This document shows, one piece after another, positions 18,077-55,174 of a stretch of DNA of 64,000 nt. The notes below the pieces were generated by a model that saw nothing but the letters and a program-made list of their open reading frames with translations, was not told the origin of the DNA and did not search any database. Numbering within the stretch: the stretch's first letter is position 1; each line of letters opens with the position of its first letter. Made by a program: the position numbers and the translations under genes. The DNA comes from Naegleria gruberi. Taxonomy: Eukaryota. Location of the stretch: the NCBI GenBank assembly GCA_000004985.1, contig GG738850.1; one strand, 5' to 3'.

Positions 18077-18425
18077 GTTACACCATAAAGCAAATGTTCT
18101 AAATATAAAATAGAACGTGAGAAGAATTCCTTTGTTTTGTAAACGTGGCAAAATTAATGATGGGTTTCCTTAATGATAAAGGTATTTCAATTTAGAATCT
18201 GTTCTTCTGAGAAACAATTTCTTAAATCTTTATTAGCCCATTCAGCAGTAGTTTATTCAGATAAGAATAGTGGAACGTGTTGAACTCCCAAACAGTAGCC
18301 AAGAATACAAAGGTACGGTTTTGTTTAAATCTGTTTCTTCAGCTATTATTCTTTGAAAATGCACTCACAGATCAAATGCTTGTGCATATTTTAAGTTACA
18401 GGAACCTTAATTTAAGATGGTTTAT

Positions 18426-18543
18426 GACTACGGCCATATCACGATTCATGCACCTCATCCCGTCCGATTTGAGAAGTTAAGCATCGTCGAGCCACATCAG
18501 TACTGAGGTTGGAGACAACTTGGGAACCTGTGGTGCTGTAGTC
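18426..18543 (+). rRNA. 5S ribosomal RNA gene (~118 nt), dispersed copy.
   Basis: The sequence GACTACGGCCATATCACGATTCATGCACCTCATCCCGTCCGATTTGAGAAGTTAAGCATCGTCGAGCCACATCAGTACTGAGGTTGGAGACAACTTGGGAACCTGTGGTGCTGTAGTC has the conserved 5S blocks (GGCCATA, CCCGTCCGAT.TG.GAAGTTAAGC, AGTACT, TGGGA.ACC, GGTGCTGTAG). Its 5' and 3' ends pair (GACTAC/GTAGTC) and a T5 run follows. Confidence 0.9.
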
Positions 18544-18548
18544 TTTTT
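18544..18548 (+). terminator. Pol III terminator (TTTTT) immediately 3' of the 5S gene.
   Basis: gtcTTTTTat follows directly after the 5S 3' helix. Confidence 0.6.
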
Positions 18549-18662
18549 ATTCTTTCTAATATTGAGCTTTATCGATAAAGTAATCGAGTAAACATACAAG
18601 TATTTATCTATCCATCTCTATCATTTGAAAATTTTGGCAAGTTAAAATTGATATCATTCAGA

Positions 18663-18733
18663 TGCGTCGACCGGGAATTGAACCCGGGTCACGGCGATGG
18701 CAACGCCGTATTCTACCACTAAACCATCGACGC
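18663..18733 (-). tRNA. tRNA-Gly (anticodon GCC).
   Basis: Reverse complement is GCGTCGATGGTTTAGTGGTAGAATACGGCGTTGCCATCGCCGTGACCCGGGTTCAATTCCCGGTCGACGC(A). It folds as a cloverleaf: 7-bp acceptor stem, A box TAGTGGTAGAAT, B box GGTTCAATTCC, anticodon loop TTGCCAT. Confidence 0.9.
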
Positions 18734-19073
18734 TTCTTACTAAGGTATTAAGGATTGTTTGGTTCTAGAAATTAAAGTAAATTGCCTTTATAATCTGACA
18801 ATTGTCAAAGTTGGAGCTTTCCTCACAATATACTGCTTCGGATTCCTCTGTAGCAATGTTTTAGAATACTTAAACCTTGTGTTTGATTTGTCAAATACTT
18901 GTTTCAAGTTCTCTGTGAAGATATGATTGTTCCATACTTGTATACCTGCTTAATTGCTCACAATTCTTCAATAATGATATTTGTTTAATAAATATGTTTT
19001 GAAAGAGTGATAACAGATTAAAATATCAATATTCCATTCAATGCAAATACAATACAAAATACAAGTAGCTTTA

Positions 19074-20291
19074 TTACAAAAACATTCCAATCAATGCCAA
19101 CATGACAATTAAAACGCTTCCAAACTTAATACTAACAGCATCACTTGTGGAAGATGCAGATGTATCCTCAGTACCAACACTAGGGTCCCAAATGAAATTG
19201 GAAACTTGTTCAGTGAAGGAAACATAAAATCTAACAACCTTTGCACTGGAAATATCAGCAGTAATGGCACCATAAGCCAATGTATTAGTATTTGCAATGG
19301 TGGCTGTTGAAGTTGAGGTAGAAACCAAAGTGGCTTTGGAAACAACAGTAGATCCAGTGCTATACTTGGAAACATAGGATTGGAATGAAAAGTATGGCTT
19401 TGGAATATTGAAAGTACTTGACAAATTCCAAGAAGAGAGGAAACTAGATTGATCGAATTGGAAAACAATTTGATCAGATGAGGCAGAATCTGGTCTTTCT
19501 TCTGAGGTGGTTGCAAATAAATCTCTGAGACTTCTACTGGATGCCTTCTTGGCCAATGATCCACGATAGGCAAGGAGTGTGGAAATTGCCAATTTACCAT
19601 TTGAATTCAAATAATTAATTCCAGTAAATTCCAAAGATGACTTGTAGGATGATGGAACTAAAACTTGTGAAACTCCTGATCTAGCAACCAATGATGAATC
19701 AGAGAATGTAACCTCATTAGTTGTTAAATAGCCAGTGAATTTAACAGTACACAAAGTTCCAACAGATGCACTTGTTGTAACTTGATAAATATAGGCAGAT
19801 GAAGAAGATGAAATGGAAGTTTTCACAAGAGTTGGAGTTGACCAAGTAAGACCAACCAAAGGATATTCCTTGACAATTGTATCTCCATTTCCTTCTTGAT
19901 ACCCACTAACTCCATCATTGTCCAAATATTCAATTACTTTGTCCACACCGAATGCAGCTCCAACATCAATAGAAATAGTGGTGGACAAGAGAGAGGTAAT
20001 CTTGATGGAAACTCCAGCACTGGCAACAGCTTTAACCATTGGGATAGTACCAAAAGCAGCATAGAATTTAAGTTGAGTGAAGGTTGACAAGCTTGTTCTG
20101 TTAGTTCCCAAATCACAGGTGGCAGCAGAAGTCAAGGAAACTTGTGAACTTGTTGTGGATGTGGTTACATCTCTCTTACATGAGAGATTGTTAGTTTTCA
20201 AACTGAAACTGACAGATGATGCAGCACTAACGACTTGGATAATGAGAAGCAGTAATAAACTAGCTCCAATTACAACGTGTTGTTTTGACAT
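19074..20291 (-). CDS. Ser/Thr-rich secreted, probably GPI-anchored, cell-surface protein (hypothetical).
   Basis: N-terminal signal peptide (MSKQHVVIGASLLLLLIIQVVSA), 405 aa with about 35% S/T, and a C-terminal hydrophobic tail (SIKFGSVLIVMLALIGMFL) typical of a GPI-attachment signal. Confidence 0.6.
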   Translation of the reverse strand: MSKQHVVIGASLLLLLIIQVVSAASSVSFSLKTNNLSCKRDVTTSTTSSQVSLTSAATCDLGTNRTSLSTFTQLKFYAAFGTIPMVKAVASAGVSIKITSLLSTTISIDVGAAFGVDKVIEYLDNDGVSGYQEGNGDTIVKEYPLVGLTWSTPTLVKTSISSSSSAYIYQVTTSASVGTLCTVKFTGYLTTNEVTFSDSSLVARSGVSQVLVPSSYKSSLEFTGINYLNSNGKLAISTLLAYRGSLAKKASSRSLRDLFATTSEERPDSASSDQIVFQFDQSSFLSSWNLSSTFNIPKPYFSFQSYVSKYSTGSTVVSKATLVSTSTSTATIANTNTLAYGAITADISSAKVVRFYVSFTEQVSNFIWDPSVGTEDTSASSTSDAVSIKFGSVLIVMLALIGMFL

Positions 20292-20979
20292 TTTTTTTTG
20301 AAATGTTCTTTGCAGAGAACATTATGTGCCTTTTGTTCGCTCTCTTAGATCTTGTAAAGTGACGAAAGAAATGAAAATGGCACCTAGATTACTTGATTGA
20401 GTTGGTTAGGAAAGTGTTCAATCAGTCACTCAACGGAAGTTTAAGGTTCTAAAAGAGCGAAATTAAGAGTGGACCATTCCAACGTCTCTACATGGGCTTA
20501 TTGTATCTACTCATTACAATATTCTAGTTCCTTTTGTGAAAATCATGCTGAAATTAATTGCATTCTCAGGTTCCAATTCTATAACTCTTCTTCAACAGTT
20601 TAATGATTATTCATCTTGTTTGAGGAGTTTGAGCAACATGATTGAGGAAGTGAAGAGGGATAGAATTTATCATTCATTCCTTATATCAGGAATTTATTGA
20701 CTAGGATTGTAACTGAATCATTGATATTAAACAAATTCATTGAAGATAATAAGTGTTACCAGAGAGGTTTTGCCATTCTTCATATTTTCAAATTGTTTGG
20801 TACAAAAAACTTTGAAAAAATAAATATAAAAAATTCCTTCAAAACTGTGATAATTTTCTAGATGATTAAAATAGATGAAAACATGAAATTTCAGATTTAG
20901 GTAGACACAAATGTCTACTTTTATCTATAAAAAATTGAATTATTGAGGTTTAGTATCTATAACCTAAAAAAGTAATTCC

Positions 20980-21050
20980 TGCGTCGACCGGGAATTGAAC
21001 CCGGGTCACGGCGATGGCAACGCCGTATTCTACCACTAAACCATCGACGC
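20980..21050 (-). tRNA. tRNA-Gly (anticodon GCC), second identical copy.
   Basis: Identical to the 18663..18733 copy across the mature tRNA and 11 nt of 5' leader (cttagtaagaa on the coding strand). A T6 run lies about 8 nt downstream of the 3' end. Confidence 0.9.
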
Positions 21051-21623
21051 TTCTTACTAAGTAATGAAATTTTACAAGCACGATACAACCTTATTGGGTT
21101 AGAAAATATTAGCTGAAGTAATAAAACTACCACATCATACTAGAGCTAGTATTAGAAGAGTTTCGGCTCTTTCGAAAATGAAATTTTTCTTCAAATATAC
21201 ACATTCATTTTCATGTATAATTTAAAATAGGTTCAAATTCAATTTGGTAGAATTACAATTGAAAAGAAAATTGCTTGTAAAATTTTCCTTATGTTCCTTA
21301 AAGAAATTGGACCACCATTAAATAATGATCACGAACATTCTAATGAAACGTAAATTGATTATTATATAATACATAAAATCCAATTCAAAGTCAAGGATAT
21401 TATACTAGTTATCAAATAATACCCATCTATTGTATAGATAATGGATCAGGTATTAACATGTTCGTAAAAAATTCCTGGTATTCCTTCCTTTTTGTGCAAT
21501 TCAAAAAGTAGGAACAGACAACTATCATTGTCAAGCCTTTGCTAAATATCTTCTTTAATAAATTAATTTTATTTTTTAAAAAATTCATGAAATTGTGCTG
21601 AAGCCTAATAATTGATCGGAAGA

Positions 21624-23717
21624 ATGACAACAAATATACCTTCATCTAATCATCAGAATGGATTGTTGTTGGCGAGGAATAAATTTAGAGAAATGAATAA
21701 TGATATTTACAGTGTAATCATGTCCTTTATGGATGTGATGAATTCATCATCGTTTTATTCATTCCTCTACCAGAAATATAATGATCAGAGTGATGAATTG
21801 TTGAAATTTATATTCCCAGCACTTTATAATTTGAGTAATAATTCTTCATCATCGGATCAGCCAACAAATAATAATACTACTATTAAAGTTAATAGTGAAT
21901 TGACTGAGATAACATTTATATTACATTGCCTTGGATTAGTGAATCAATTAAAATCAGCAGTTACATTTAATTCACTGCCTCCTTTGGAAGTTTTCCCTAA
22001 CATTGACTTGTACAAGGAATGTGATAATTTTGTTTCCTTGTTGGAGTTGATTAAAACCGAATATATTTACTATAAGAAAGTTGACCGTCTAAAATTATTT
22101 AAATTTGTAATGAATTTAGATTGTTTGGCAAGATATATTGGATATGGGCTTTCACACTTTAATTTAAAAACAAAGTCTTTGAAAGATTCCTATTTTACAA
22201 CATTTTCAGCTTTACCATTCTTGAAGAAGGTAAAGGAAACTCTTTTAGAAAAGTTTGAACCAATCCAACTTTTTGAAAAGTATCACATACCAATTACTTC
22301 ACGTGCAATGAAGGAAATTTTGAATCAAATGACCTTTAGATCGAATAAGTATATCAGCTCATTCTATTACTCTACGTATGGTTACTCTCTATGCATGGAT
22401 ATTATAAGAGTTACTGAACATGAAATTATGGAGGAAGATTTTGTCAATACTCTTTCTTATTCATTTAAACTTAATTTTTTGAAGGATTTACATATTTGGG
22501 CGGATTTCAGAAAGATAAAGAATGAGAAATTATTTTTTGATCAGCTTTTGAAGCTCATCGCAAATTTGAACAATAATTTGAATTTGCTCTACATAGATAT
22601 TGACTATTACGAAAATGAAGATCAACTTGTCAAATTAATGGAACTACTCAACTCGGTAAAGAAGAATTTGCACCATTTGACAATATCTACATATACAGAA
22701 TCAAAAGATATGGATCCTTTCGTTAAAATTTCAAAACTTGACTTTACTCACAATATCAAACACTTGACTCTCATCGATAAGAATAATTTCAACTTGTTGA
22801 ATAGGCTAATTTTCAAGAATGCTTCCAGTTCTGAAAATTCAAAACTTGAACAGCTAACAATATCAAATATTGACTATTTATACATGTTTTTGAATGCTCA
22901 TACATCCCTTAAGAGACTTGATTTTTATGGGAATTTGAATTCAACTAATGAGAGCTTTAACGATACAAACCTTATCAAGGAATCATTTATGAACCTCAAG
23001 TCCTTAGATACTGTCTTTATAGATGATAGAAATGAAGCATTGGGATACTCTGTTCTTGGAAATATGGGAATTTATATCAATAACATTATCTTCAAATATA
23101 GTAAGAATGGATATACACTTTCCTCTCTCATTGAATGCTTTAAAAGAAACGCCAGAAGAGTTGACAAATTAACTATTATTGACAATACTAACTTTGGCAC
23201 AAATATCCAATTATTGTGTAAGATTGTTTCATCATTTTTGTTTGATAATATTCTGAACCAATTGGTCATACACACAAGACATGTGTCATTGTTGAACGAA
23301 TTGACCTTCTCAATCCACCACATGTTCTCACCAACTGAGCTCGAATTGAAATATCTTCAGATTATTAAGAAGTTGAATTCTATTGATTTTATTCTATTTA
23401 TTGGAAAGGCTAATAATCCAAACAATAACTTTACCAACTCGAATTTAAATGTAACCATAACAATAGTTCATAGCATACCAATATCTGGAGAATTTAATAT
23501 CAAGGATGAAATTATTGATAAAAGAGCAGAAATAGAAAGTGTAATGAGTAATGTCTGTATTTTGGGAAGTAGTGTCCAATTAGATCAGGTTGATATTCAC
23601 ACATTCAGACCACCTTTCAATCATTATTTATTCTATAGATTTTTGCATTCACTCTCATTTTCCAATAATTTAACACTGACTAGATCATCACTTTATCAAT
23701 TAATGATTGTGAAATAA
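21624..23717 (+). CDS. Hypothetical protein with leucine-rich-repeat-like segments.
   Basis: About 698 aa from the ATG at 21624; the track start at 21612 is a TTG. Repeated L.xL.L..N patterns (NLNLLYIDI, LTISNIDYL, KHLTLIDKNNFNLLNRL) suggest an LRR or F-box-LRR-like fold. No firm family. Confidence 0.55.
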   Translation: MTTNIPSSNHQNGLLLARNKFREMNNDIYSVIMSFMDVMNSSSFYSFLYQKYNDQSDELLKFIFPALYNLSNNSSSSDQPTNNNTTIKVNSELTEITFILHCLGLVNQLKSAVTFNSLPPLEVFPNIDLYKECDNFVSLLELIKTEYIYYKKVDRLKLFKFVMNLDCLARYIGYGLSHFNLKTKSLKDSYFTTFSALPFLKKVKETLLEKFEPIQLFEKYHIPITSRAMKEILNQMTFRSNKYISSFYYSTYGYSLCMDIIRVTEHEIMEEDFVNTLSYSFKLNFLKDLHIWADFRKIKNEKLFFDQLLKLIANLNNNLNLLYIDIDYYENEDQLVKLMELLNSVKKNLHHLTISTYTESKDMDPFVKISKLDFTHNIKHLTLIDKNNFNLLNRLIFKNASSSENSKLEQLTISNIDYLYMFLNAHTSLKRLDFYGNLNSTNESFNDTNLIKESFMNLKSLDTVFIDDRNEALGYSVLGNMGIYINNIIFKYSKNGYTLSSLIECFKRNARRVDKLTIIDNTNFGTNIQLLCKIVSSFLFDNILNQLVIHTRHVSLLNELTFSIHHMFSPTELELKYLQIIKKLNSIDFILFIGKANNPNNNFTNSNLNVTITIVHSIPISGEFNIKDEIIDKRAEIESVMSNVCILGSSVQLDQVDIHTFRPPFNHYLFYRFLHSLSFSNNLTLTRSSLYQLMIVK

Positions 23718-23718
23718 A

Positions 23719-24891
23719 TTATTTCCATCGTTTAATTTGTGAAATTTCTTTAGAACATATTGGACAGTTCACAATATGCTCACTCGAATCGTTCAATAAT
23801 GCACTTTGAATACAGTAATAGCAAAATCGATGTTTACAATCCCCATCATGACTTGTGAATGGAATAAGTATTGGGTTACTGTTACAATATGGACATTCAT
23901 CATTCAGTTTGTCAACATCTACACCGTCCTGACTAGTCAAATTCTTTGCAATAATACTTGCTGTGGAATTTGGTGTACTTTCTCCAAGATGGAAAATTTG
24001 TGATTTGATTGTCAAATAGAATTTTCTGTACAAGAATGTAAAAAGCTTTTTGAAATTGATAAGGGGAGCAATAAATAATATTGTCTCTGCTAACCCATTC
24101 CAAATTAATTCAGTATTCATGTAATCAAAAGATAATTGTCTTATCATAAACCTAGTGGCATAAACCTTTCTCCAATTAAAAACTCTATCTATTACAGACT
24201 TGTACTTTCCCTGGTAGAGGAAAATTACAAAGTTTATAAATTCCAATAATTTGTAATAATATTCAAATTTTTTCAAATAATTAAATGATTCTCTTTTAGA
24301 TAATCGTTCAAATAAATATGGAATACCTATACAAGAAAGTCCATATATTACTTTCGAAATTGTTGATGGATTTTTTAAATTGACTGTATTATATTTTAAA
24401 TTCTGTATTCCATCACCAAAAGATTGATTATTATCAAAAATTGAATATTTGTATATAAATATTCTAATAAATAACATTATTTCCGGTTCATAATTTTCAA
24501 CACTATTAAAATGTTTAAATACTCTTTTAAAATAGCCTTTTAAATAATTTTCAATTTCGAAATCTAATCGATCCGAATCCAATTGATTAACTTTTAAAAT
24601 TTTAATATCATTCAACATGTTGTGATGATGTAAAGATGATGATCCATTCCTCTGATGACTTAAATATTCTTTCAAATTAAAGTATTGTTCCGATTCTGAT
24701 TGATTACTTGAAGCATGATCCAAGCCTTCGTTCCCTTCCATCATTGATGAATTCCCATTGTATGATACATTACCATCACGTGCTTCACTAACAGATGGGA
24801 ATTCATTCTCTTCACTGTTCACAGGAGAGTTTGTTGCAACACCATTATTGTTATTAATAGCAGACAATGTCGATGGTATTGTAGAAGACAT
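23719..24891 (-). CDS. PEX2: Peroxisome biogenesis factor 2 (PEX2), RING-type peroxin.
   Basis: N-terminal Pex2/Pex12 domain and a C-terminal RING (ECPYCNSNPILIPFTSHDGDCKHRFCYYCIQS...CPICSKEI) close to the PEX2 RING ([24 protein letters not shown]). The probable ATG is at 24891 (MSSTIPS); the track start at 25002 is a TTG. Confidence 0.75.
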   Translation of the reverse strand: MSSTIPSTLSAINNNNGVATNSPVNSEENEFPSVSEARDGNVSYNGNSSMMEGNEGLDHASSNQSESEQYFNLKEYLSHQRNGSSSLHHHNMLNDIKILKVNQLDSDRLDFEIENYLKGYFKRVFKHFNSVENYEPEIMLFIRIFIYKYSIFDNNQSFGDGIQNLKYNTVNLKNPSTISKVIYGLSCIGIPYLFERLSKRESFNYLKKFEYYYKLLEFINFVIFLYQGKYKSVIDRVFNWRKVYATRFMIRQLSFDYMNTELIWNGLAETILFIAPLINFKKLFTFLYRKFYLTIKSQIFHLGESTPNSTASIIAKNLTSQDGVDVDKLNDECPYCNSNPILIPFTSHDGDCKHRFCYYCIQSALLNDSSEHIVNCPICSKEISQIKRWK

Positions 24892-25037
24892 GGCTCGAAT
24901 TATTTTTAAAGAAGTGAATTGATGAAAAGCAAAAGAGAAAATTCTTAAGAAAAAAAAGGCGCAACTTATCTTCAACTTCGACTTTTTCTCTCCAGCACCC
25001 AACTAATATTGGCCAACTCCCCAGAGAAGAATAAAAA

Positions 25038-27167
25038 ATGTATCCAGGAGGCAACAACGATCCCAACAATGTTGCTAGGATGGCTCAGCTTTTGAAAAAT
25101 CCGCAGTATTTATCCATGTTGGCCAACAAGATGAACACTCCTTTTTTGCAAGGCCAGCCAACTTTGATACATCACCCAACGGCTGGCACTACAATTACTC
25201 CCAATGCTATGGCATTAATTCAATCAGCTGCTCTTCAACAACAACAACAACAACAGCAGGCTAATATTAATGCAACAACAAATGGAGGAGCTAGAATAAT
25301 GCCATCAACAGCTAGTATTATTCCTAATGGTAATGGTGGAGTAAATAATAATAATAATGGAGCAGTTAGTAAATGGCATGACGATTTGAGTAGACATACA
25401 AGACAGGAATTATTCAATACAATAGTAGAGATTAAAACTGGTAAATCGTTTAATGGTGACAAATCATCTATAGACAGCAATTTGAGCAAATCTATTCTTA
25501 ATCAAATCAGTAGGATATGGAAACAAACAAATTCTAAAGAACAATTTGCTCATGAGTTATCACAATGGCTTGCAACTGAAAATACAGGTGTTTCTGAAAC
25601 AGATATTGAAAAGAAATTGTTGGAGCTCATGAACAAACCTGGTCAACAACAAAAACCATCTTCATCTGTGGGGGTTGAAAACTTGTTTGGAATGATGACA
25701 ACAGCTGCATCATCAATAGGTACAAACAGTTCATTCCCAAATATTACAAATCCCATCAATTCAGCCAAAAACCCAACTGGAGGAACAAATACAACAACAG
25801 CCACAAGCACTTCTACTACCACAACAACATCCAACACAAACACTTCCACTACTACTAATACAGCTGTAAATAATACCAATGGTGTAACCACCACTAGTGC
25901 ACCTCCTGTGCCTAGCACCAATCCAACTAATCCACCCATCAAGAAAATTTCTCCACAAGACATTGAAAAGTATTTAGGATTTGCCGATTTCTTAAAGCAA
26001 CACGAGGATATGATTAGACAATACATTAGATCAGTTGCTACGCAGCATGCCGATTTAACTAAACGACTCAAAACTTTTTCAGTACTCTCATCTGAGGAAC
26101 AAAACAAGGTAAAAGCTAGTATGCAAAAGAATCAAATGATTTTAGCAGAATCTAAAGCACTAGATAAGTTACTTTCATTGACTACTAGAGAAGATCGTGT
26201 GAAACTTTTGGAAAATTTAACTCAAAAATCCTTTGCATTTGCAGTTCATATTAAGGATGTTATCGAGAAGAAATTAAAACCTGTCAAAACTGATACTGCT
26301 CAACCTCCAACTGCTACTGCTCCTCCACCTCCACCTACCACTTCAGCAACAGCCACAAATAATACAAGTAGCACAACCGTTTCTTCAGTATCGTCTACAT
26401 CCTCAATCAATAACGCTACTGCTGTTCCTGTTACAAATCAACCTAGTGTTACTCCAACTCCAACTCAATCGGCAAATCAACAAACAGCACCTGCTAGCTC
26501 ATCTAATCCTCCTTCAGCTGTCCCTTCCACAAATCATAAAAAGGAATCTGGTGATGATGGATTTTTCAATTTGAAAAAGATTGGAGAATCTTCTATTATA
26601 ACATTTAATCAAGATTCCTTTTACTCTGCTTTAGGAGAAATGAATATCAAAAATCTAACACATTCTACTAAGAGAAAACTTATACCTGAGTCTACAGAAC
26701 ATGAAAAAGTTCTAAAGAGAGTCAAAACTCCAATCGACATTTTACAAAACAATTTAACTAATTTAATTGAGTTTGATAATGTAATAGAATTTAAAAATAC
26801 AATTAATATCAAACTTATCGAAGATGCTAGATACCAACTCGATTTTATAATTAACCCTATTGAAAAAGGAATTTTGAATTTACCAATTTTAACTTTATGT
26901 GTAATAGTTAATCATAATGAAATAATACCGTATTCTATATCATTTTCTCAAAACTATGCCAATGAGAAGAATTCTATATTTGTAAATATTAGAAAATATT
27001 TTAATAATTTATTGATTGAAAACACAACTAGTTTTATTAATACAAGTGACATGTTGAGCACCCAAAACAACACTTACCACATACAAAGATATAACCTCTC
27101 CTTGAATTGTATTTTAAATAGTTGGATTACCTCAATTAATACCGTTGTAAAAAAAGAATTGCAATAA
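25038..27167 (+). CDS. Gln/Asn/Thr/Pro-rich low-complexity nuclear-type protein; a weak KIX-like N-terminal segment suggests a possible Mediator-tail/coactivator-like role.
   Basis: 709-aa ATG-initiated ORF. WHDDLSRHTRQELFNTIVEIK resembles the Med15/ARC105 KIX helix (DWR..L.pe.Rq.lVnkIvdtLkrh). The functional call is weak; the ORF itself is long and well supported. Confidence 0.55.
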   Translation: MYPGGNNDPNNVARMAQLLKNPQYLSMLANKMNTPFLQGQPTLIHHPTAGTTITPNAMALIQSAALQQQQQQQQANINATTNGGARIMPSTASIIPNGNGGVNNNNNGAVSKWHDDLSRHTRQELFNTIVEIKTGKSFNGDKSSIDSNLSKSILNQISRIWKQTNSKEQFAHELSQWLATENTGVSETDIEKKLLELMNKPGQQQKPSSSVGVENLFGMMTTAASSIGTNSSFPNITNPINSAKNPTGGTNTTTATSTSTTTTTSNTNTSTTTNTAVNNTNGVTTTSAPPVPSTNPTNPPIKKISPQDIEKYLGFADFLKQHEDMIRQYIRSVATQHADLTKRLKTFSVLSSEEQNKVKASMQKNQMILAESKALDKLLSLTTREDRVKLLENLTQKSFAFAVHIKDVIEKKLKPVKTDTAQPPTATAPPPPPTTSATATNNTSSTTVSSVSSTSSINNATAVPVTNQPSVTPTPTQSANQQTAPASSSNPPSAVPSTNHKKESGDDGFFNLKKIGESSIITFNQDSFYSALGEMNIKNLTHSTKRKLIPESTEHEKVLKRVKTPIDILQNNLTNLIEFDNVIEFKNTINIKLIEDARYQLDFIINPIEKGILNLPILTLCVIVNHNEIIPYSISFSQNYANEKNSIFVNIRKYFNNLLIENTTSFINTSDMLSTQNNTYHIQRYNLSLNCILNSWITSINTVVKKELQ

Positions 27168-27345
27168 TTGTAAATAAACATTGCTATGTACATTCAAATA
27201 TTAAAATAACTGACTTTTGTATAACGTGCACTATTCGAAACTTGTCTAAAGCTTTTTCAATAGATTTAGTAATAAGGGGTATCATTAATGGAAATAGATA
27301 TTTGTTTATTACAATTTGGATATCATGTTCAAAAGAAAGATCAAT

Positions 27346-28395
27346 TTATTTGAAATATTTAACAAGTGAATAGCCTAACAAACCTGTTAAACCAACACCT
27401 AATAATGCAGAACCAATCATTTTGCCATAATATTGAACTGGGTGATGATGCTTATAGTCAATGTCATATATTCCAAACCAATTCTCAACCTTGTTAACAA
27501 CAGAGTTGAAATCCTTCCTTGTTCCAATAACTTGAATATCAAACCTATGTTCGAAACCAATCTTTTCATAAATTGGTCTGCCATCCATTGTTGCATGCAA
27601 TACACAATATTTGTAATTATTGAGTAGAGCAATTTCTAAAAGTAGAGTAACCACCAATGAAGCAAAGCCCTGACCCTGATAATCTGGTCTTGTTGTAATG
27701 GAAAATAATGAGGATATTTCCCTTCCCTTAATGAGTTGACCACATGCAACAACTCTTCCATCCTTTTTAACAATGACCCATTCATAAACTTCTGATTTCA
27801 ACACATATTGAGCATATAATTGACTTGCATCTTTTGGTAATTCTTCACCATAGAATGCTTCATAGTAAGTTTCTGCAATTTCAACTGCTTCTTCAGAAGT
27901 ACTCAAAGTTTTAATTACAAAGTCCTTTCCTTGAGCTAGAATAACTCCAGATTCATGTTGAACTTTTTGTAAACTTTCCTCAATAAATCCAAACTCATTT
28001 TTCAACTTTTCCAATATTTTCTCTCTCAATTTCCTACTCTCCATCAAATCACAAATCATTCCAGTACTAACTTCAATCCAACTAATTGGCATCTTGTCAA
28101 AAATTGTTTTTTGCAATCTATCAAACTTTTGTGTCCTATTTTTCGAATCATACATTGGAATAAATAAATAAACAGGTACACCATCCGATTGTTCCCGAAC
28201 AGTTTCCATAAATTGTAAGCTATTTTCACTCCTGGTAACATAGAAAAGTTCAGGTGCTGGCAATTTTTTCAGTATTTCCTTCTTAAATCCTGGCATGCTT
28301 GTATTCTCATTCTCATACAGGTCAAAAACAGAGGGAAAACCTTTAACAAGTGCTGTGTTATAATCAAAGAGTCCATCAATGATGAGTTTGTTCAT
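27346..28395 (-). CDS. GNAT-family N-acetyltransferase domain protein with a C-terminal transmembrane helix.
   Basis: GNAT motif A (VACGQLI...TRPDYQGQGFASLVV) in the C-terminal half; hydrophobic C-terminus (MIGSALLGVGLTGLLGYSLV). Confidence 0.65.
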   Translation of the reverse strand: MNKLIIDGLFDYNTALVKGFPSVFDLYENENTSMPGFKKEILKKLPAPELFYVTRSENSLQFMETVREQSDGVPVYLFIPMYDSKNRTQKFDRLQKTIFDKMPISWIEVSTGMICDLMESRKLREKILEKLKNEFGFIEESLQKVQHESGVILAQGKDFVIKTLSTSEEAVEIAETYYEAFYGEELPKDASQLYAQYVLKSEVYEWVIVKKDGRVVACGQLIKGREISSLFSITTRPDYQGQGFASLVVTLLLEIALLNNYKYCVLHATMDGRPIYEKIGFEHRFDIQVIGTRKDFNSVVNKVENWFGIYDIDYKHHHPVQYYGKMIGSALLGVGLTGLLGYSLVKYFK

Positions 28396-28697
28396 TTTTT
28401 TTGTGGAAGTAAAAGAAAATTCATTATTTTTTCACACAACAAAGAATTAAATAATTATTGAGAGAAAATTGTAGATTATTGAATGAATTTATTGTCAATA
28501 AATTCGAAAGAAAGTAAATTGGTAATGACAAGGTTGGATAATTTAGATAATGATATCAAACTCTACTTTTGAAAAAAAGATTTCACATGATGAACTTTAC
28601 ACACCATGATTTCACCTCAACTCTTATTACACTTAAATCAATTTGACCAACATCAATCAATTGTCAACTATTTGATAGCCAAATAACAATAAAAAAA

Positions 28698-29306
28698 ATG
28701 AGTGAACAAACAACACCACAAATTTCCAACAGAAGAAGAAGAAAGCAACAACAAGAAGATGCAGCAATCACTACACCATCTTCACCTCAACACACACCAG
28801 TTGACACACCATCCTCACCAATCAATGCCTCCAACATTCCAACACAAGTCGAACAAAAAGATATCAAAAAACTCTGTGAAGAATTACAAAATAACAATCC
28901 ACTGATTACCACTGTTGATTTGAGTCATCAAATTCTCTCAGTGAATGATATTGCTCTCCTATTGGATGCTCTAACAAAGAATCACTATGTAGTAACTGTG
29001 GATATGACTGCATGTGGTATTATTGATCAGGCTGCTGAGTTTATTGGTGAATTTATTGGTATGAATCATAAGAGTATTAGACATTTGTATTTGGATTTGA
29101 ATCCATTCTCTGATGAAAATGCAATTCTCTCAATTTTGGATGGTTTACAGGAAAATCATCAAATTGTGGATATGACTTTGAATGAAAGTCTTTTACCTCA
29201 AGAACATTTAGATGAAATGGATAGATACTTGTTACGTAATGATGATAGTAATACTACTCTCTTAATATTTTACAAAATATTGATGATTAAAATGATAGGA
29301 AATTAA
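28698..29306 (+). CDS. Small leucine-rich-repeat (RNI/tropomodulin-cap-like) protein with an S/T/P/Q-rich N-terminus.
   Basis: 202-aa ORF with short LRR-like units (LITTVDLSHQILSVNDIALLLDAL; IRHLYLDLNPFSDENAILSILDGL). Confidence 0.5.
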   Translation: MSEQTTPQISNRRRRKQQQEDAAITTPSSPQHTPVDTPSSPINASNIPTQVEQKDIKKLCEELQNNNPLITTVDLSHQILSVNDIALLLDALTKNHYVVTVDMTACGIIDQAAEFIGEFIGMNHKSIRHLYLDLNPFSDENAILSILDGLQENHQIVDMTLNESLLPQEHLDEMDRYLLRNDDSNTTLLIFYKILMIKMIGN

Positions 29307-29609
29307 TTTCCTTTTTTTAATTATTATTGTCTCTTGTCAATTTACAACAACAACTCGACGATCTTCCTATTTGATGATGCTTGTGAATGTTGTTTAATAG
29401 TCAATAATAACACGATTAAATATTTTTGTAAATTTTAAATAACACAAAAACTTTTGTTTCTCTCAAAATAAAATTTAAGCAAAAAAAATACATCAAAGGC
29501 TTTTTCCTTGCCGTTTAAAACTGATTACAAGCGTTTGAGTTTACAAGTATATAAATAATTTAAATCCACCAAATAATTAACAACCTTAAACATTCATCGG
29601 ATCAGAGAG

Positions 29610-31202
29610 ATGGAGTTTCTCAAAAGAAAGTTTGATGCTCTTGCTGATTATTTTGATGAATGGAAATTTAGAATATTATTCTTTTTTGATGAGGATATTT
29701 ATGATTACCTTTCAGAAAATGTCTTGTTTTTAATTTTTATATTATTACCAAATATTTTGGTATTAGTGTGTACTTTTAATATTTGGCCATTCAAGCCAAT
29801 GTATACATTTATATTATTATTTTTATTTAGTGTATATAATAGTATTGTCTTTTTTGAAAGAAAGAGGACTTATCAAATATTTAATTCAAATATTAATGAA
29901 TTGGATAATCTCTATTCTATTAATAAGAAGGATGAAACTAATTTTACTCGTGGTAATTTTTTTAATGAGAGGCCAAGACCTGGAATTCCAAATTTCAGAA
30001 AATCTGTACATCCCTTACTTGGTGCTCGATATGAAAAGGAACACCAAAAACCATTTATTCTTATTAGATTATTTAAAATGATTTTGGGAATTTTGGAAAT
30101 TGTCTTTCATTTTCTAACTGTTGGAGCTCTCAGAAACAAACGTGTGAGGAAGAGCAGATTATTTAAGGAGAGGGAAAAGGTCAATAGAATGACCTACTCA
30201 GAAAAGAAGAGACAGGAGGAAATTGATAATAGACCTGCCAATATGACTACATATTATGACGATATGGTAAGTTGTCTCAAGAAATTTACAATAACCAATT
30301 CAATTAAGGGACCCAAAATTGAGCCACAAGCCTCTGCACCTACTCATGAATCTGAAAATAATATCTATGAAATTGAAATGTGGGAATACTCTCAGTATGA
30401 CAGAGTGTTGGTGACCTACTTTTCTCCAATTCAAGTCTTGTTCATGTTTGCCATTTACTGTTTTGTAACTGGTAATTCCTCTACTATTATACTTACAAAA
30501 GCTGTACTTGTTCTATGTGTATATGTACAGTCTATTTTCTTAGATAGAATTATGATTAATTTGGAAAAGAAAGAATCTGATAAGAAAATTATTTATGCTC
30601 AAGCTCAAAAAGAACAAATTGAGTTTAATAACAGATTTAATCAGGTCAAGAATCAATATTTGACCAATATTATTAGGGAAAATAATATAAATATATCATT
30701 ACCAACTGATTACCATCCATTACATATTGTTGGTAATTCTATATTAAGCAATTCTAACAATGGAAATAATACAGATGAAATTATTGAAGAGGATGAAATA
30801 ATTATAGAAGATAGAAATCCAAATCAAAACAAACAAGCACACCAAACCACTAGGAGAGAAGAAATAAGGACAGATAGATTTCTGGTACCATCATCCTCAA
30901 GGCAATCAAATTCAAATCCAACCAACTCAACCACTAACAAGATGCAACTAATTGTCAATCCCAGCGAAACCTCAATTTTTGAGTCAAGAAATGAGCATAG
31001 CAGAGTAAGGGAAGAAATAAGGCAACAAAACCTCCTAGATATGGATTTGGATGAAAGTAGAAGAAACGATAATAGAAAACAACCAACTGTAAGTTCATCC
31101 ACAACTTCATCATCAGTTGATGAGGAAAACCAAAAAAAAAGAAAAGAAAATGAAGGAAATATCTTCCAAAAACACACCAGAAAAAAGGTAAAGCATGATT
31201 AA
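29610..31202 (+). CDS. Hypothetical multi-pass membrane protein with a charged, Asn-rich C-terminal tail.
   Basis: 530-aa ORF with three to four hydrophobic helices in the first 320 aa, then a basic/acidic low-complexity tail. No family recognised. Confidence 0.55.
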   Translation: MEFLKRKFDALADYFDEWKFRILFFFDEDIYDYLSENVLFLIFILLPNILVLVCTFNIWPFKPMYTFILLFLFSVYNSIVFFERKRTYQIFNSNINELDNLYSINKKDETNFTRGNFFNERPRPGIPNFRKSVHPLLGARYEKEHQKPFILIRLFKMILGILEIVFHFLTVGALRNKRVRKSRLFKEREKVNRMTYSEKKRQEEIDNRPANMTTYYDDMVSCLKKFTITNSIKGPKIEPQASAPTHESENNIYEIEMWEYSQYDRVLVTYFSPIQVLFMFAIYCFVTGNSSTIILTKAVLVLCVYVQSIFLDRIMINLEKKESDKKIIYAQAQKEQIEFNNRFNQVKNQYLTNIIRENNINISLPTDYHPLHIVGNSILSNSNNGNNTDEIIEEDEIIIEDRNPNQNKQAHQTTRREEIRTDRFLVPSSSRQSNSNPTNSTTNKMQLIVNPSETSIFESRNEHSRVREEIRQQNLLDMDLDESRRNDNRKQPTVSSSTTSSSVDEENQKKRKENEGNIFQKHTRKKVKHD

Positions 31203-31217
31203 AATAATTCAAAATGA

Positions 31218-32342
31218 TTAATTTGTTACAATATTTTGATACTTTTTCAATTCAGTATGCTTAGGTTTGTATAAAACAACAGTACAAAACTTGTCCTTGT
31301 ATCTTTGAGTGACACCAACCTTATTCATGTTATCTCTTTCAGCAAAGTAAGCATGGTTAACAGTGACGTGAAGTGGAATTGGTAAAAGACCTGGATCATA
31401 GTGGAATCTCTTGCTACTATTTAATGGAGTGTAACGCAAGTGAGGAGGTAAAATTGGTGGGTTTTTCTTATTTTCTGGGAAGATTTCTTCTTGATATCCA
31501 TATACATTACTATATTGTTTGGCTTCGCCATCCTTAGCTTCAGTTTTTTCATTTTCCTTTGTGTGATGAGCTGTTGTAGTGTGTGGTTGATGATGTGGTT
31601 GTTTTACAGTTGGAGAAACCTCATGAGTTGGAGAAGTATGAGATTGATGATGTGGTTGTTGTTGACCTCCGTAGGCACCAACACCAACTGGTTGTGGAAC
31701 ACTAGTGGTGGCTCTTCTTGGTGGAGAAGAAGCAGGAACACCAACGTGAGATTTAATTTCATGTTGTCTATTATTTCCTCCAATAACAATTGGTGATGAA
31801 GTTGTGTGATGATGATTTGATGACGATGATGAATTTGATGAAACATCTTCTTCATCTTCCTCTTCTTCTTCTACTTCCTCACTTTCTTCATCAGCTGTTA
31901 TTTCAACAACATTACTCAAATAGCCATGTTCATCCTTCTCAGTAGGTGAATTCAAATCAGTTGTATATTCTCCATCAACAATAAACTATTTTCATCAATA
32001 AATATTAAAATCATCACCATATCGGTTATAAATAATAATTCCAATTAATAAAACACATACTCTATAAAAGTGTTTTCCAACAGAAACGTTCAAAATAACA
32101 ACGAAAGCCTCTTCTTCGCTATTGTAGGACATTGGTATCTTTTCAGACCAATTATTAAAGCTACCAATAATATAAACTTTTCTTCCTCCGTATGGCCAAC
32201 GAAACATTGTTGGTACTTTGGTTTCATTAAAAGCAGCTGGCACATAATTATCATAATATTTATCATCCTTTGGAGTTTGAGCATGAGGAGAGTGGGCTCC
32301 ACCAGATGGTGTTGCTGGATTTTTACTTCCGGTCACACCCAT
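31218..32342 (-). CDS. AMP-activated protein kinase (SNF1 kinase) beta subunit. Two exons: join(31218..31985,32061..32342), about 349 aa; the N-terminus fits the MGxxxS myristoylation motif.
   Basis: Exon 1 holds the CBM48/glycogen-binding domain (KVPTMFRWPYGGRKVYIIGSFNNWSE...VGKHFYR) and ends at a GTATGT donor. A 75-nt intron (31986..32060) ends in AAATAG. Exon 2 continues FIVDGEYTTD... and ends with the ASC domain (VNHAYFAERDNMNKVGVTQRYKDKFCTVVLYKP). The track start at 32348 is a GTG; the ATG at 32342 gives MGVTGSK. Confidence 0.8.
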
Positions 32343-32629
32343 TTTCACTATTAAAATTGATCATCATTAATAATAATTATATTATCCAATATATAATATA
32401 CATATCATATAACACCATCATCATCAACAATCAAAATTTTCAATACATAAAACAATCAGAAAACAACGTACATTAAAGTATTTTGGTGGTGGAGGATATT
32501 TTTTTAGAGTTAGAAGGAAAATAAAAATAGCCTTCAAAAGAAAAAACAAGCAAATTGGGTTATTTTGAATAACCAAGTTGAAAATATCCGAAATTGGGTT
32601 AAAGAATAAAATTCACATTGAAAAAATGT

Positions 32630-33853
32630 TTATACAGTTGATAAACCCATTAATTTTCTCAATTCTTCATAGAGAGGAAGTGTAAGTAAGCAATGAGATC
32701 CAATTCTAATATAATTTGGTACAAATCCACTTGCAAAAGCTCTCACTCCATTGTTTTTCAAAGTTTTAACAGTACAATCAATTAGACCTGTATATTCAGT
32801 CTTGGATGCCATCAATCTGGTTTTGATAACATCAGCTGGATTAGTTGTAATGGTACTCAAAAGACCAGCAACAAGAGAAGCTGTCACGTGAGTATAGATA
32901 TTATCTTGGAAGTAATCAGTTTTGAGAAGTAAATGTTTCACATGATCATAGGTCGATAATTGAGTTGCAGTTAAAATTGAGGCACGTAAAACATTTGGTG
33001 TTGATCCTCTGAAAAGTCCCATAATACCACCTTCGTATTTGGTAATATTATTTACAATTTTAACCCAATTATCAGGTCTTTGTTGAGTAGCAGTTTTAAC
33101 AAATCCTTGCTATTTAATTATTTAATACAAAAATTCAATAATAATTATTAATATATAATTATTCAGTTTTTTGTATTTTTAGATTATTAAAATTCAGTTA
33201 TTAAATAAGATTAAGGTTTCTTGAAATACATACCTGACGAATTTTAACTAAATCACATCCATTACTAACAATACTTCCCAACGAACCTGAAATAGCTCCA
33301 GATAATATTTTAGTTGTCAATCCAACATCTCCACTAACAGTTTGTCCATTATGAACAATATTAGAAATGACACTTTTCAATGGATCATACATTCCCATTC
33401 TTACAGAGCTATAAAACTGCTCTCTCACAACAGCAGCAAATAATCCTCTTCCCACAAGTATTCCAAATCCCTCCTCCTTATACAAATTATAATATGACTT
33501 GGTGAATGATAATTTTTGATGTGTTAATTGGAGACGTGTTTTAACATGATCTGGAGAATTCATCAATCCAGATACGATACCTGCCGATATACCTCCTTTT
33601 GACAGAATTACAATTTGGCCATTTGATAAAACTTACCTGCAACAAACTTGAGCACAGTCTTGTAAATAGATTTGTTCTCTTCCAATCTCTTTTCATATTG
33701 CAAATGTTCATAATTTATCTTGTCATCATGATGTTCGGAAGTTAACAATGACGATGATTCGGTTGTTGGAGCAACTAGAGAGAATTGAACATCAGCAGTT
33801 GTTGTTTGTTTATTATTGCCAACGATATCGGAAGTGGACTTATTGAGCGACAT
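32630..33853 (-). CDS. Mitochondrial carrier (SLC25) protein, UCP/dicarboxylate-carrier-like. Three exons: join(32630..33109,33234..33595,33637..33853), about 352 aa.
   Basis: Three track ORFs carry the three carrier repeats (P.DHVKTRLQ; DLVKIRQ; PADVIKTRLM). Exon 1 ends VLKFVAG|GTAAGT. A 41-nt intron ends in AAAAG and restores the canonical F.AGG.AG...P.D..K.R.Q motif. Intron 2 (33110..33233, 124 nt) runs from GTATGT to AAATAG. Confidence 0.8.
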
Positions 33854-33990
33854 TTTTTTTCACACTTTAAAAACCCTCCCTGCAGATTTGATTGTATCGA
33901 CTTTACTCTTAATTCTTCCTTTCAAGTGGTACTGTAGTGAAGATTCTTAACTGAACGATAATTTACAATGTAAAGTTTATTAAATAATAT

Positions 33991-34860
33991 TTATAATTCA
34001 TCACGATGGATGGTTGTGTTCGATTGGTTGGATTGACTTTGGTCAGAGAGATGAAGATTTCGAATGATTTGACTCAAATCCTTAATTTCCTCATCAGAAA
34101 CAAAGTGACCAACACCATTGTAGATTTTAGTTTTCATATTTTCAACCTTGACTTGGGTTTTCAAGTATTCAAAACCAATATTAGCAAAATCAAACTTGAT
34201 AACAGGATCTGAATCTCCATGCAAAATATGAATTGGAATAAATCTATTACTATTCTTGAATGTTTCATCATCCTTGTAGAGAGTAACAAATCCAGAGGTA
34301 GAAATTATACCTCCCAACTTGTATTTACTTCTCAATCCAACTAAAATACTCATAGAACCTTAATGAATCGAATGTGAGATGACAATGTTGAATTGAAACA
34401 ACATGCATAATTTAGAAAACTCACCTCCTTGTGAAAAACCACCAACAATGATTCTATTTGGTTGAATATTGTTGTCACTGATTTGTAATTGAATAATTTC
34501 ATCAATTAAATTCTTTGATTCTAAAATTCCATCCCTATCCCAATCAGTAGAGCCAATCTTTTTCACATTGAACCATGCATTCATCTTTTGATTATTTACA
34601 GTTATGGTTCTAACGGGAGCATTTGGAATAATTGCCAACATGGAAGGAGGTAAAATGTTCTTAAATAAATTGGAAAATCCTCGATAATTATCACCCAGTC
34701 CATGCATCCATATCAATACCGAGTCCACCTTGTTATTGTTTGGTGTTAAAATTGCACAATTTAATTTTCCAATTGTGGAGTGTGAAATTGTATGTTGGAG
34801 GGACATTTCTATCAAAAACGAGAAAATGAATAGGAGAATGAAACTTTGTCTTGTGTTCAT
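33991..34860 (-). CDS. Phospholipase/carboxylesterase (acyl-protein thioesterase-like, Abhydrolase_2) with an N-terminal signal peptide. Two exons: join(33991..34358,34425..34860), about 267 aa.
   Basis: Nucleophile elbow GGFSQGG, split after GGFSQG-G by a 66-nt intron (GTGAGT...ATTAAG, 34359..34424). Downstream HGDSDPV carries the catalytic Asp and His is in the following region. N-terminal hydrophobic leader. Confidence 0.75.
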
Positions 34861-35036
34861 TGTTTTTTAAAAATTCAACCATTAAATGTTCTCTTAAATA
34901 TTAACAGGTAAGTAAACTAATTTGTACGCACTCAACGTGGTCTGTCGGATTCTATTTACATGTTAAGGAAAACCATTCTTTTTGAAGAACTCAACTATGT
35001 TTGGATTTAAATTCATGATGGTTCTATGTGTACTGG

Positions 35037-35948: not shown

Positions 35949-35970
35949 TTTTTTAAAGTTTATTTACAAT

Positions 35971-55101: not shown

Positions 55102-55174
55102 TGCTGACGGACGGGATCGAACCGGCGACCAATGGCTTATTAGACCAACGCTCTACCGACTGAGCTACGCCAGC
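55102..55174 (-). tRNA. tRNA-Ile (anticodon AAT), with one C-U mismatch in the T stem.
   Basis: Reverse complement is GCTGGCGTAGCTCAGTCGGTAGAGCGTTGGTCTAATAAGCCATTGGTCGCCGGTTCGATCCCGTCCGTCAGC(A). A box TAGCTCAGTCGGTAGAGC, B box GGTTCGATCCC, anticodon loop CTAATAA, 7-bp acceptor with one G-U. T stem GCCGG/CCGTC has a 50-64 C-U mismatch and the anticodon stem has a 27-43 U-U mismatch. Confidence 0.7.

Follow-up and report, generated by a model that had tools for sequence, protein, structure and literature searches.

Neighbouring 5S rRNA and tRNA-Gly(GCC) genes at a Naegleria gruberi locus are very likely ordinary, independently transcribed Pol III genes

At one locus of Naegleria gruberi, a 5S rRNA gene converges on a tRNA-Gly(GCC) gene, and an identical second copy of that tRNA gene lies on the far side of a gene for a Ser/Thr-rich protein. 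The locus is part of a 64,000 nucleotide stretch of contig GG738850.1 (assembly GCA_000004985.1), the whole of which was analysed and is referred to here as the window. Such an arrangement raises the question of whether the three Pol III genes and the gene that they bracket belong together functionally, or whether they are simply neighbours. Our analysis indicated that the locus is very likely to consist of three ordinary chromosomal Pol III genes, each with its own predicted transcription, and not to be a functional unit. The features on which this reading is based are listed in Table 1.

Table 1. Position, strand and supporting evidence of the features at the Pol III locus, numbered from the first nucleotide of the window
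Feature	Position	Strand	Evidence or remark
Block of about 17.8 kb, not represented in N. fowleri between the same pair of flanking genes	18152..35970		tblastn
TATA-like AT-rich element ATATTTTAAG	18386..18395	+	-40..-31 of 5S; direct reading, regex scan
Second TATA-like AT-rich element TTAATTTAA	18407..18415	+	-19..-11 of 5S; direct reading, regex scan
5S rRNA gene, full length	18426..18544	+	Rfam RF00001, RNAfold
5S box A AGTTAAGCATCGTCG	18475..18489	+	+50..+64; 0 mismatches
5S box C GAGGTTGGAGACAACTTG	18505..18522	+	+80..+97; 2 mismatches to 18-nt consensus, canonical position
T5 Pol III terminator of 5S	18544..18548	+	direct reading
First T4 downstream of tRNA-Gly copy A, probable terminator	18644..18647	-	16 nt after mature 3′-end
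tRNA-Gly(GCC) copy A	18663..18733	-	ARAGORN; RF00005, 66.9 bits; no intron, no encoded CCA
B box, copy A	18674..18684	-	B-box scan
11-nt 5′ leader, copy A, CTTAGTAAGAA	18734..18744	-	same in both Gly copies
Single-exon gene, 405-aa Ser/Thr-rich secreted protein (predicted), GPI-signal-type C-terminus	19074..20291	-	composition, hydropathy, homology
T6 Pol III terminator, copy B	20966..20971	-	9 nt after mature 3′-end
tRNA-Gly(GCC) copy B, identical to copy A	20980..21050	-	ARAGORN; RF00005, 66.9 bits
B box, copy B	20991..21001	-	B-box scan
11-nt 5′ leader, copy B	21051..21061	-	same as copy A leader

Comparison of the 5S gene with RF00001, the check that an earlier sequence-only reading of this DNA had itself named, gave a score of 101 bits (gathering score 38, E 6e-21) across model positions 1-120, and only two non-canonical pairs were flagged in the CM alignment. 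The minimum-free-energy fold obtained with RNAfold was a three-helix junction of -38.2 kcal/mol (z = -2.46), which matched the CM architecture. The description of the gene as full length and followed by a T5 terminator was upheld. Box A, scored against the consensus that Feng et al. (2012, PMC3369914) had applied, and box C, scored against an 18-nt consensus in which many positions are degenerate, both lie at the canonical positions of a Pol III type 1 gene, and the T-run comes directly after the gene. Feng et al. (2012, PMC3369914) described an internal control region and an upstream TATA box for N. gruberi 5S genes; they found TFIIIB and TFIIIC in the genome and did not find TFIIIA, so the exact reading of the type 1 promoter is uncertain. 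From these elements we infer that the 5S gene is transcribed from an internal type 1 promoter of its own and that transcription would end at the T5 run; the AT-rich elements around -40 and -19 probably aid it.

The list of Feng et al. contains entries that are clearly truncated and entries of low similarity, so decayed 5S copies are present in the N. gruberi genome, and the present copy could in principle be a silent or non-functional pseudogene amid the many dispersed ones, given its two mismatches to the box C consensus. Against this, the copy is full length and scores far over the threshold, none of its helices is disrupted, box A matches perfectly and the terminator abuts the 3′-end, and we consider a pseudogene very unlikely.

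The rDNA of N. gruberi is an extrachromosomal circle with only 18S, 5.8S and 28S genes, so every 5S gene of this organism must be chromosomal. Table S1 of Feng et al. (2012, PMC3369914) lists 279 genes as putative 5S genes, which its authors scored as lying apart from the rDNA units. Re-analysis of that table placed the 279 genes on 117 scaffolds; neighbours on the same scaffold were a median of 33.9 kb apart, and only one spacing was under 1 kb. The 5S gene of the window is very probably one of these entries; the set comes from the same organism, its members are of similar length (117 nt in the list) and they too have T-run terminators. Both the composition of the rDNA circle, which had been proposed as a check, and the scatter of the 279 genes agree with the earlier claim of a dispersed 5S organisation unlinked to rDNA. 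The premise from which that claim had been argued, that 5S genes are often confined to rDNA repeats, is mainly true of hemiascomycete yeasts; in most other eukaryotes the 5S gene is outside the rDNA unit (Acker et al. 2008, PMC2566860). The scattered 5S and tRNA layout at the locus is normal, and already published, for N. gruberi. Table 1 of Feng et al. ticks 'tandem arrangement' for this organism, whereas their own coordinates show scattered 5S genes. Another free-living amoeba, Acanthamoeba castellanii, has about 100 5S genes dispersed over most chromosomes (Matthey-Doret et al. 2022, PMC9528979). It belongs to the Amoebozoa, a different supergroup from Naegleria, and the same study gave no evidence of circular rDNA in A. 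castellanii, whereas the large rDNA of Naegleria is an extrachromosomal circle.

ARAGORN and Rfam agreed on the two minus-strand tRNA-Gly(GCC) genes that had been read from the sequence, and the RF00005 score of each stands against a threshold of 29 bits. The B-box scan identified GGTTCAATTCC in both copies, and the A-box region was read directly as TGGTTTAGTGG. The 3′-ends of the two genes are GCA/TCT and GCA/GGA, with the boundary after GCA, and CCA is not encoded. Downstream of copy A there are T4 runs only, the second of them at 32 nt. Both genes would be read from their internal A and B boxes by successive action of TFIIIC, TFIIIB and Pol III, and transcription would end 9-16 nt downstream, at the T4 or T6 run. 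The 5′ leader would then be trimmed by RNase P and CCA would be added post-transcriptionally.

The tRNA-Gly copies start 2317 bp apart and have the same orientation. A comparison of the two showed identity over exactly 82 nt, made up of the 71-nt tRNA and the 11-nt leader, just as the sequence-only reading had it; the flanks beyond these 82 nt were unrelated on both sides. The leaders of the other two tRNA genes in the window differ from CTTAGTAAGAA. The pair probably arose by a short DNA-level duplication, or by gene conversion, spanning the gene and its 11 nt leader. Counting against our reading of the locus, the sharp identity of the 11-nt leader finds no explanation in simple neutral decay of a segmental duplication. 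An RNA-mediated (retroposed) origin of the duplicate was considered because the identity spans roughly the transcribed 5′ leader and the tRNA; it was rejected, as the copies had no CCA, shared 3′ trailer, A-tail or target-site duplication.

In its 64 kb the window contains four tRNA genes and one 5S gene. B-box matches were confined to the four tRNA genes (4 vs 0.28 expected), and the intergenic DNA contained neither an ORF of more than 74 aa nor a repeat family suggestive of a retroelement, which bears out the earlier statements that neither an ex-B-box nor a retroelement remnant is visible near the tRNAs. AT-rich stretches were found at about -10 to -40 upstream of the four tRNA genes and the 5S gene, and an AA(A/T)TTTCA-like run was found upstream of three of the tRNA genes. 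In intergenic DNA with a GC content of 32%, a candidate upstream motif of this kind was indistinguishable from background, and a common motif was rejected. Additionally, an snR76-like C/D-box candidate on the minus strand (20502..20597) was weak (22 bits, threshold 55, E 0.57) and was taken as a chance match.

The gene between the two tRNA genes had been described as encoding a Ser/Thr-rich GPI-type surface protein. The 405-aa ORF matched a predicted protein of the N. gruberi annotation with 100% identity. Its Ser and Thr content was 30.1%, whereas twelve other long ORFs in the window had 13-22%. Hydrophobic segments were present only at residues 4-27 and 385-405. A hydrophobic C-terminal tail, preceded by Ser/Ala/Gly-rich sequence and with zero residues after it, was found in 22 of the 23 members of the family. 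The Ser/Thr-rich and GPI-type parts of the description are supported at the level of the sequence, and location of the product at the surface is presumptive.

A search of 1.84 billion proteins yielded 30 representatives of the family at E <= 0.001. Judged by homology, the family is small and distantly NCU-G1/GLMP-related, and its named members are all heterolobosean. The Pfam model PF15065 (NCU-G1) was matched by 6 of 23 family members at E <= 0.01; the homologues P0014 (43% identical to the window protein) and P0025 scored 27.1 and 33.2 bits, the cut-off being 27, and the window protein itself gave no match to PF15065 at the Pfam threshold. Like NCU-G1/GLMP proteins, the ORF product is of about 400 aa and has a predicted signal peptide, and its homologues align to the Pfam model over profile positions of about 60-260. 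In animals, GLMP is a membrane protein of type I whose cytosolic tail is short, whereas the present family ends in a GPI-signal-like hydrophobic tail with nothing after it. An AlphaFold2 model of the ORF product, built from a three-sequence alignment, had a mean pLDDT of 34.5 and was unusable, and a profile search of PDB sequences gave no match at E <= 1. N. gruberi also encodes a paralogue of the ORF, P0002.

Five related loci, which together span about 105 kb of N. fowleri, N. lovaniensis and Willaertia magna DNA, yielded no tRNA or 5S gene; among them is the one that carries the bracketed gene's closest N. fowleri homologue. Comparison of the window ORFs by tblastn with one locus each of N. 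fowleri (L004) and N. lovaniensis (L002) revealed that in N. fowleri the genes on either side of the 17.8 kb block of the window directly adjoin each other. The Pol III cluster, which is the left edge of this block, therefore sits at a synteny breakpoint.

Several readings would give the arrangement a function. In Yarrowia lipolytica, 48 of the 108 5S genes are fused to the 3′ side of a tRNA gene and expressed in that form (Acker et al. 2008, PMC2566860), and a dicistronic tRNA-5S transcript of this type, bypassing TFIIIA, would suit a genome in which TFIIIA was not found (Feng et al. 2012, PMC3369914). The 5S genes of Y. lipolytica, like the one described here, are scattered outside the rDNA and adjoin tRNA genes. 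They lie, however, a few nt 3′ of a tRNA gene on the same strand and are co-transcribed with it, whereas the 5S gene and tRNA-Gly copy A are convergent, with 119 nt between the end of the former and the tRNA 3′-end, and each appears to have a separate promoter and terminator. Because the tRNA gene is downstream of the 5S gene and on the opposite strand, Yarrowia-type dicistronic expression is excluded at this locus; the plus strand upstream of the 5S gene has no tRNA-like sequence, and the 5S gene carries a box A and a box C of its own. We give this reading next to no credence. A role in chromatin, in which the tRNA-Gly pair and the 5S gene would be TFIIIC-bound boundaries insulating the glycoprotein gene, was also weighed, the sequence-only reading having put forward the tRNA pair as a boundary or insulator. 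The two tDNAs bracket a single Pol II gene in the same orientation, and both carry apparently intact B boxes, the predicted TFIIIC sites. Boundary activity of tDNAs and TFIIIC has been documented in yeasts and animals (for example PMC3395662 and PMC7567086), and the boundaries of budding yeast, fission yeast and human (for example PMC3395662) share with the present locus tRNA genes that carry intact B boxes and flank a Pol II gene. An intact B box does not discriminate an insulator, however, because it is true of any functional tRNA gene, and the Naegleria locus shows a resemblance to these boundaries only, without their boundary context or positional conservation. No heterochromatin or repeat domain is marked in the nearby sequence; in N. 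fowleri, the 10 kb on either side of the closest homologue of the bracketed gene are free of tRNA genes; and neither tRNA nor 5S genes occur in the regions of N. fowleri, N. lovaniensis and Willaertia that are syntenic to one or the other flank. A compact genome with about 924 tDNAs is expected to contain a tDNA-flanked gene now and then. We regard an insulator as highly improbable and the original proposal as speculation, positional conservation being absent across the related loci.

A further reading holds that Naegleria Pol III genes are non-randomly clustered, with 5S genes beside tRNA genes, and that the clusters mark sites of chromosome rearrangement. A precedent is Leishmania major, which like Naegleria belongs to the Discoba and in which tRNA genes accompany each of the eleven dispersed 5S genes, the spacers being about 200 bp long (Padilla-Mejia et al. 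2009, PMC2695483). The present locus is alike in that a dispersed chromosomal 5S gene stands beside tRNA genes, which in L. major may be on either strand. The L. major clusters, however, lie between polycistronic Pol II units, whereas the Pol II neighbours in Naegleria are monocistronic, only one locus was seen and chance suffices to account for it. Clustering is favoured by the four tRNA genes and one 5S gene of the window, where about 1.4 and 0.4 would be expected from genome-wide counts, and by the position of the cluster exactly at the edge of a block that N. fowleri does not have between the orthologous neighbours. It is also favoured by a metagenome scan with a 5S core pattern, in which about 12 of 120 environmental 5S-bearing contigs had a tRNA gene within 1 kb; the best of these contigs was 79% identical to the 5S gene of the window and none was Naegleria-like, so that the scan gives only a rough base rate for 5S-tRNA adjacency. 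On the other side, this is a single locus, picked after the fact. For N. gruberi 924 tDNAs have been reported, and the genome paper reportedly gives a genome size of 41 Mb. On the assumption of random placement in a genome of that size, this number of tRNA genes leads to an expectation of 1.5-3.6 cases per genome, by chance alone, of a 5S gene within 120 bp of a tRNA gene. The other two tRNA genes of the window have no 5S gene nearby, and since the five related loci are without any Pol III gene, no clustering trend is visible in them. We consider non-random clustering unlikely. Distinctly unlikely, too, is the extended form of this reading, in which Naegleria 5S genes are parked beside tRNA genes in Pol III islands favoured for rearrangement and for the insertion of lineage-specific genes, the GPI-glycoprotein gene of the locus being an example; if it were true, Pol III gene islands would be a genome-architecture feature shared among discobans.

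Three ordinary, independently transcribed chromosomal genes remain our preferred account of the locus. The closeness of the 5S and tRNA genes, and the bracketing of the glycoprotein gene, would on this account be by-products of the presence of many Pol III genes in short intergenic spacers. The locus opens no new question; by-products of the analysis are the disagreement between the 'tandem' label and the scattered coordinates of Feng et al., and a family of GPI-signal-bearing proteins that appears to be distantly related to NCU-G1/GLMP. It is a clean and typical example of Pol III gene organisation in Naegleria, in which the large rRNAs are encoded on an extrachromosomal circle and the 5S rRNA genes are chromosomal, scattered in hundreds of copies.

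Every feature observed in the sequence-only reading was confirmed. The segment from 18,426 bp, read as a full-length 5S rRNA gene with a T5 terminator, scored above the gathering score of the Rfam model and aligned across the whole of it, with only two non-canonical pairs flagged. By itself, the 5S strand folded into a three-helix junction (-38.2 kcal/mol, z = -2.46). Box A and box C were scored with consensus patterns taken from Feng et al. 2012 (PMC3369914). At the sequence level, this segment would be a working 5S gene. The 5S genes returned by a metagenome scan were ≤79% identical to it.

Features of the window (coordinates in bp; signed positions are those of the 5S gene)
Feature	Position	Strand	Remarks
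5S rRNA gene	18426..18544	+	Rfam 5S_rRNA, 101 bits, gathering score 38, E 6e-21
AT-rich TATA-like elements of 5S gene	-40..-31 and -19..-11	+
Box A of 5S gene	+50..64	+	0 mismatches to Feng et al. consensus pattern
Box C of 5S gene	+80..97, canonical position	+	two mismatches to Feng et al. consensus pattern
T5 run (terminator)	18544..18548	+	first T is the final base of the 5S gene
tRNA-Gly(GCC) copy A	18663..18733	-	ARAGORN and Rfam, 66.9 bits
Ser/Thr-rich protein gene, 405 aa	19074..20291	-
tRNA-Gly(GCC) copy B	20980..21050	-	ARAGORN and Rfam, 66.9 bits
RhoGEF/RabGAP gene	35971..40830
Small paralogous ORF, 92 aa	49024..49302	-
Small paralogous ORF, 78 aa	50815..51051	-
Small paralogous ORF, 71 aa	51416..51631	-
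tRNA-Ile(AAT)	55102..55174	-
tRNA-Glu(TTC)	59014..59087	-

Both tRNA-Gly(GCC) genes were recovered in the shared orientation in which they had been read; each had an intact B box and neither contained an intron or an encoded CCA. Runs of T were found downstream (T4 at 16 nt for copy A, T6 at 9 nt for copy B). Together with tRNA-Ile and tRNA-Glu this gives four tRNA genes in 64 kb, all on the minus strand; their density is about threefold the genome-wide mean calculated from 924 tDNAs. Beyond the 5S and the four tRNAs, no structured RNA was revealed when all 64 kb were scanned with Rfam at permissive settings. The B-box scan of the window returned four matches (0.28 expected), each within one of the four tRNAs; there are thus no orphan TFIIIC sites in the window, which agrees with the earlier observation of no ex-B-box near the tRNAs. 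An AA(A/T)TTTCA-like run was present 10–25 nt upstream of three of the four tRNAs. Additionally, part of the spacer between the Ser/Thr-rich ORF and copy B weakly matched the C/D-box snoRNA model snR76 (20,502 bp–20,597 bp, minus strand; 22 bits, gathering score 55, E 0.57), a hit that is probably due to chance.

The starts of the two tRNA-Gly copies were separated by 2317 bp. As had been claimed, the copies were identical through the 71-nt tRNA and an 11-nt leader (CTTAGTAAGAA), exactly 82 nt in all, and the DNA on either side of this block was unrelated. The leaders of tRNA-Ile and tRNA-Glu differed from that of tRNA-Gly, so CTTAGTAAGAA is not a motif found upstream of tRNA genes in general. 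As a chance match of 11 nt in the leader is very improbable, we infer that the pair arose through a short duplication or conversion tract which took in the leader; the alternative is that the leader has been kept by selection within the tRNA-Gly family. A retroposed origin of the duplicate was unsupported, there being no CCA, shared trailer or A-tail.

The ORF flanked by the tRNA-Gly pair had been read as encoding a Ser/Thr-rich GPI-type protein, and analysis of its product agreed with this: Ser and Thr made up 30.1% of residues, compared to 13–22% for twelve further long ORFs in the window, and the only two hydrophobic segments were at residues 4–27 (N-terminal, signal-like) and 385–405 (the extreme C-terminus). 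Within N. gruberi the protein had a paralogue at 49% identity, and N. fowleri had a homologue at 45%. When 1.84 billion representative proteins were searched exhaustively, only 30 relatives were revealed at E ≤ 0.001, and those that were named were proteins of N. gruberi, N. fowleri and Willaertia magna, all heterolobosean. Every complete member had a C-terminal tail resembling a GPI signal. In 22 of the 23 aligned family members the terminal hydrophobic stretch was preceded by a Ser/Ala/Gly-rich region and followed by zero residues, an arrangement predicted to be that of a GPI-attachment signal and not of a transmembrane anchor followed by a cytosolic tail. The window protein itself had no Pfam match. 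PF15065 (NCU-G1/GLMP) was matched by 6/23 members, two of which reached its curated cut-off of 27, namely P0014 (27.1 bits; 43% identical to the window protein) and P0025 (33.2 bits). Taken with the GPI-type tail, these matches suggest that the family is best described as a divergent, GPI-signal-bearing branch of the NCU-G1 family. The predicted structure of the window protein had a pLDDT of 34.5, too low to be of use, and no solved structure matched it by sequence.

The neighbourhood was compared with five related loci: the one that holds the bracketed gene's closest homologue in N. fowleri (L001), the Pex2 loci of N. lovaniensis (L002, PYSW02000014.1) and Willaertia magna (L003), and the N. 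fowleri ZZ/RING locus in two assemblies (L004, VFQX01000002.1, and L005). No tRNA or 5S genes were found in these loci, which total ~105 kb. The cluster lies between a ZZ/RING gene on the left and Pex2, a conserved single-copy gene, on the right. The ZZ/RING and RhoGEF/RabGAP orthologues of N. fowleri are 162 bp apart, compared to 17.8 kb in N. gruberi, so 18,152 bp–35,970 bp of the window, Pex2 included, has no counterpart at that locus; at its left edge this block holds the Pol III cluster and the glycoprotein gene. Nic96 follows on the RhoGEF/RabGAP side in N. fowleri, and the RRM, choline-transporter and GOST genes on the other side match the window order. The Pex2 segment of N. lovaniensis is elsewhere; it retains the orthologues of window 25–31 kb, includes the 701-aa gene as a relocated copy and has a second flank that is unrelated. 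In Willaertia, Pex2 is beside orthologues of the genes at 6.5 kb and 41–46 kb of the window. As judged from gene order, the neighbourhood is conserved, yet with much local reshuffling, and the comparison, together with the lack of tRNA or 5S genes in the related loci, places the cluster at an evolutionary breakpoint, with its position not conserved. The suggestion that the tRNA pair acts as a chromatin boundary or insulator around the surface-protein gene was therefore unsupported: the lack of positional conservation speaks against a conserved function, and no heterochromatin-like DNA, repeats or retroelement were found near the cluster, the last as originally observed. A lineage-specific boundary function is possible.

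The 701-aa ORF (plus strand, ending at 23,717 bp) is convergent with the Pex2 ORF (minus strand, stop codon beginning at 23,719 bp); there is essentially no intergenic DNA between them, so their 3′ UTRs must overlap. Elsewhere, three small paralogous ORFs were found close together, within 2.6 kb. Their products share a Ser-rich N-terminus (MEGYTSSSSGGSSNHSVRAQIQSLKETMEEGN...), (A/D)KLLESN heptads that vary in number and are encoded by a 21-nt tandem repeat, and a hydrophobic tail at the C-terminus (LLSMF.LV..MYYFK), and they look like a family of tail-anchored coiled-coil mini-proteins with copy-number-variable repeats.

The 5S gene and tRNA-Gly copy A were convergent, as read, their 3′-ends lying 119 nt apart. 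The N. gruberi genome is ~41 Mb, and random placement on it of 279 5S genes and 924 tDNAs would put a tRNA ≤120 bp from a 5S in 1.5 cases per genome, rising to 3.6 if placement is limited to the ~42% of the DNA that is non-coding. A single adjacency chosen by eye therefore needs no special explanation. The tDNA count is that of Bermudez-Santana et al. 2010. In Yarrowia, the 5S lies 3′ of a tRNA and is co-transcribed with it (Acker et al. 2008, PMC2566860), a mechanism excluded here by the convergent orientation. Leishmania major has 11 dispersed 5S copies, every one adjoining tRNA genes (PMC2695483), and by analogy a systematic association of this kind is possible in Naegleria. As a whole, the locus is an ordinary one: a set of Pol III genes, each probably transcribed on its own, that occupy the short intergenic spacers of a compact genome.

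The window, with a GC content of 32%, is nuclear chromosomal DNA of N. gruberi, since the product of the bracketed ORF matched an N. gruberi 'predicted protein' from end to end at 100% identity, the adjacent ZZ/RING protein showed 100% identity to an entry from the same 707,703-bp N. gruberi contig, and the neighbouring genes (Pex2, ZZ/RING, RRM and choline-transporter-like proteins) are eukaryotic in kind. When the rDNA unit was checked, no 5S gene was found to be reported on the extrachromosomal rDNA circle of N. gruberi; the 5S genes must thus be chromosomal, which leaves no rDNA-linked copy for comparison. A search of the JGI assembly by Feng et al. revealed 279 putative N. gruberi 5S genes, scored as apart from rDNA units and as possessing both a TATA box and an internal control region; TFIIIB and TFIIIC subunits were found in the genome and TFIIIA was not. 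Re-analysis of the coordinates in their Table S1 showed the 279 entries to be spread over 117 scaffolds, with a median distance of 33.9 kb between neighbouring copies on one scaffold; one spacing was <1 kb and 22 were <3 kb. Overall, the copies are scattered, though a degree of loose clustering is seen. Table 1 of the same paper ticks 'tandem arrangement' for N. gruberi, whereas its own Table S1 coordinates show scatter, and a statement in PMC5805870 is 'not literally true' in light of the chromosomal 5S gene in the window. Acanthamoeba likewise has dispersed 5S genes (~100 copies; PMC9528979), and the 5S lies outside the rDNA unit in most eukaryotes other than hemiascomycete yeasts (Acker et al. 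2008). The dispersed organisation read from this ordinary locus is correct but had already been published for N. gruberi, where it follows from the rDNA being extrachromosomal.
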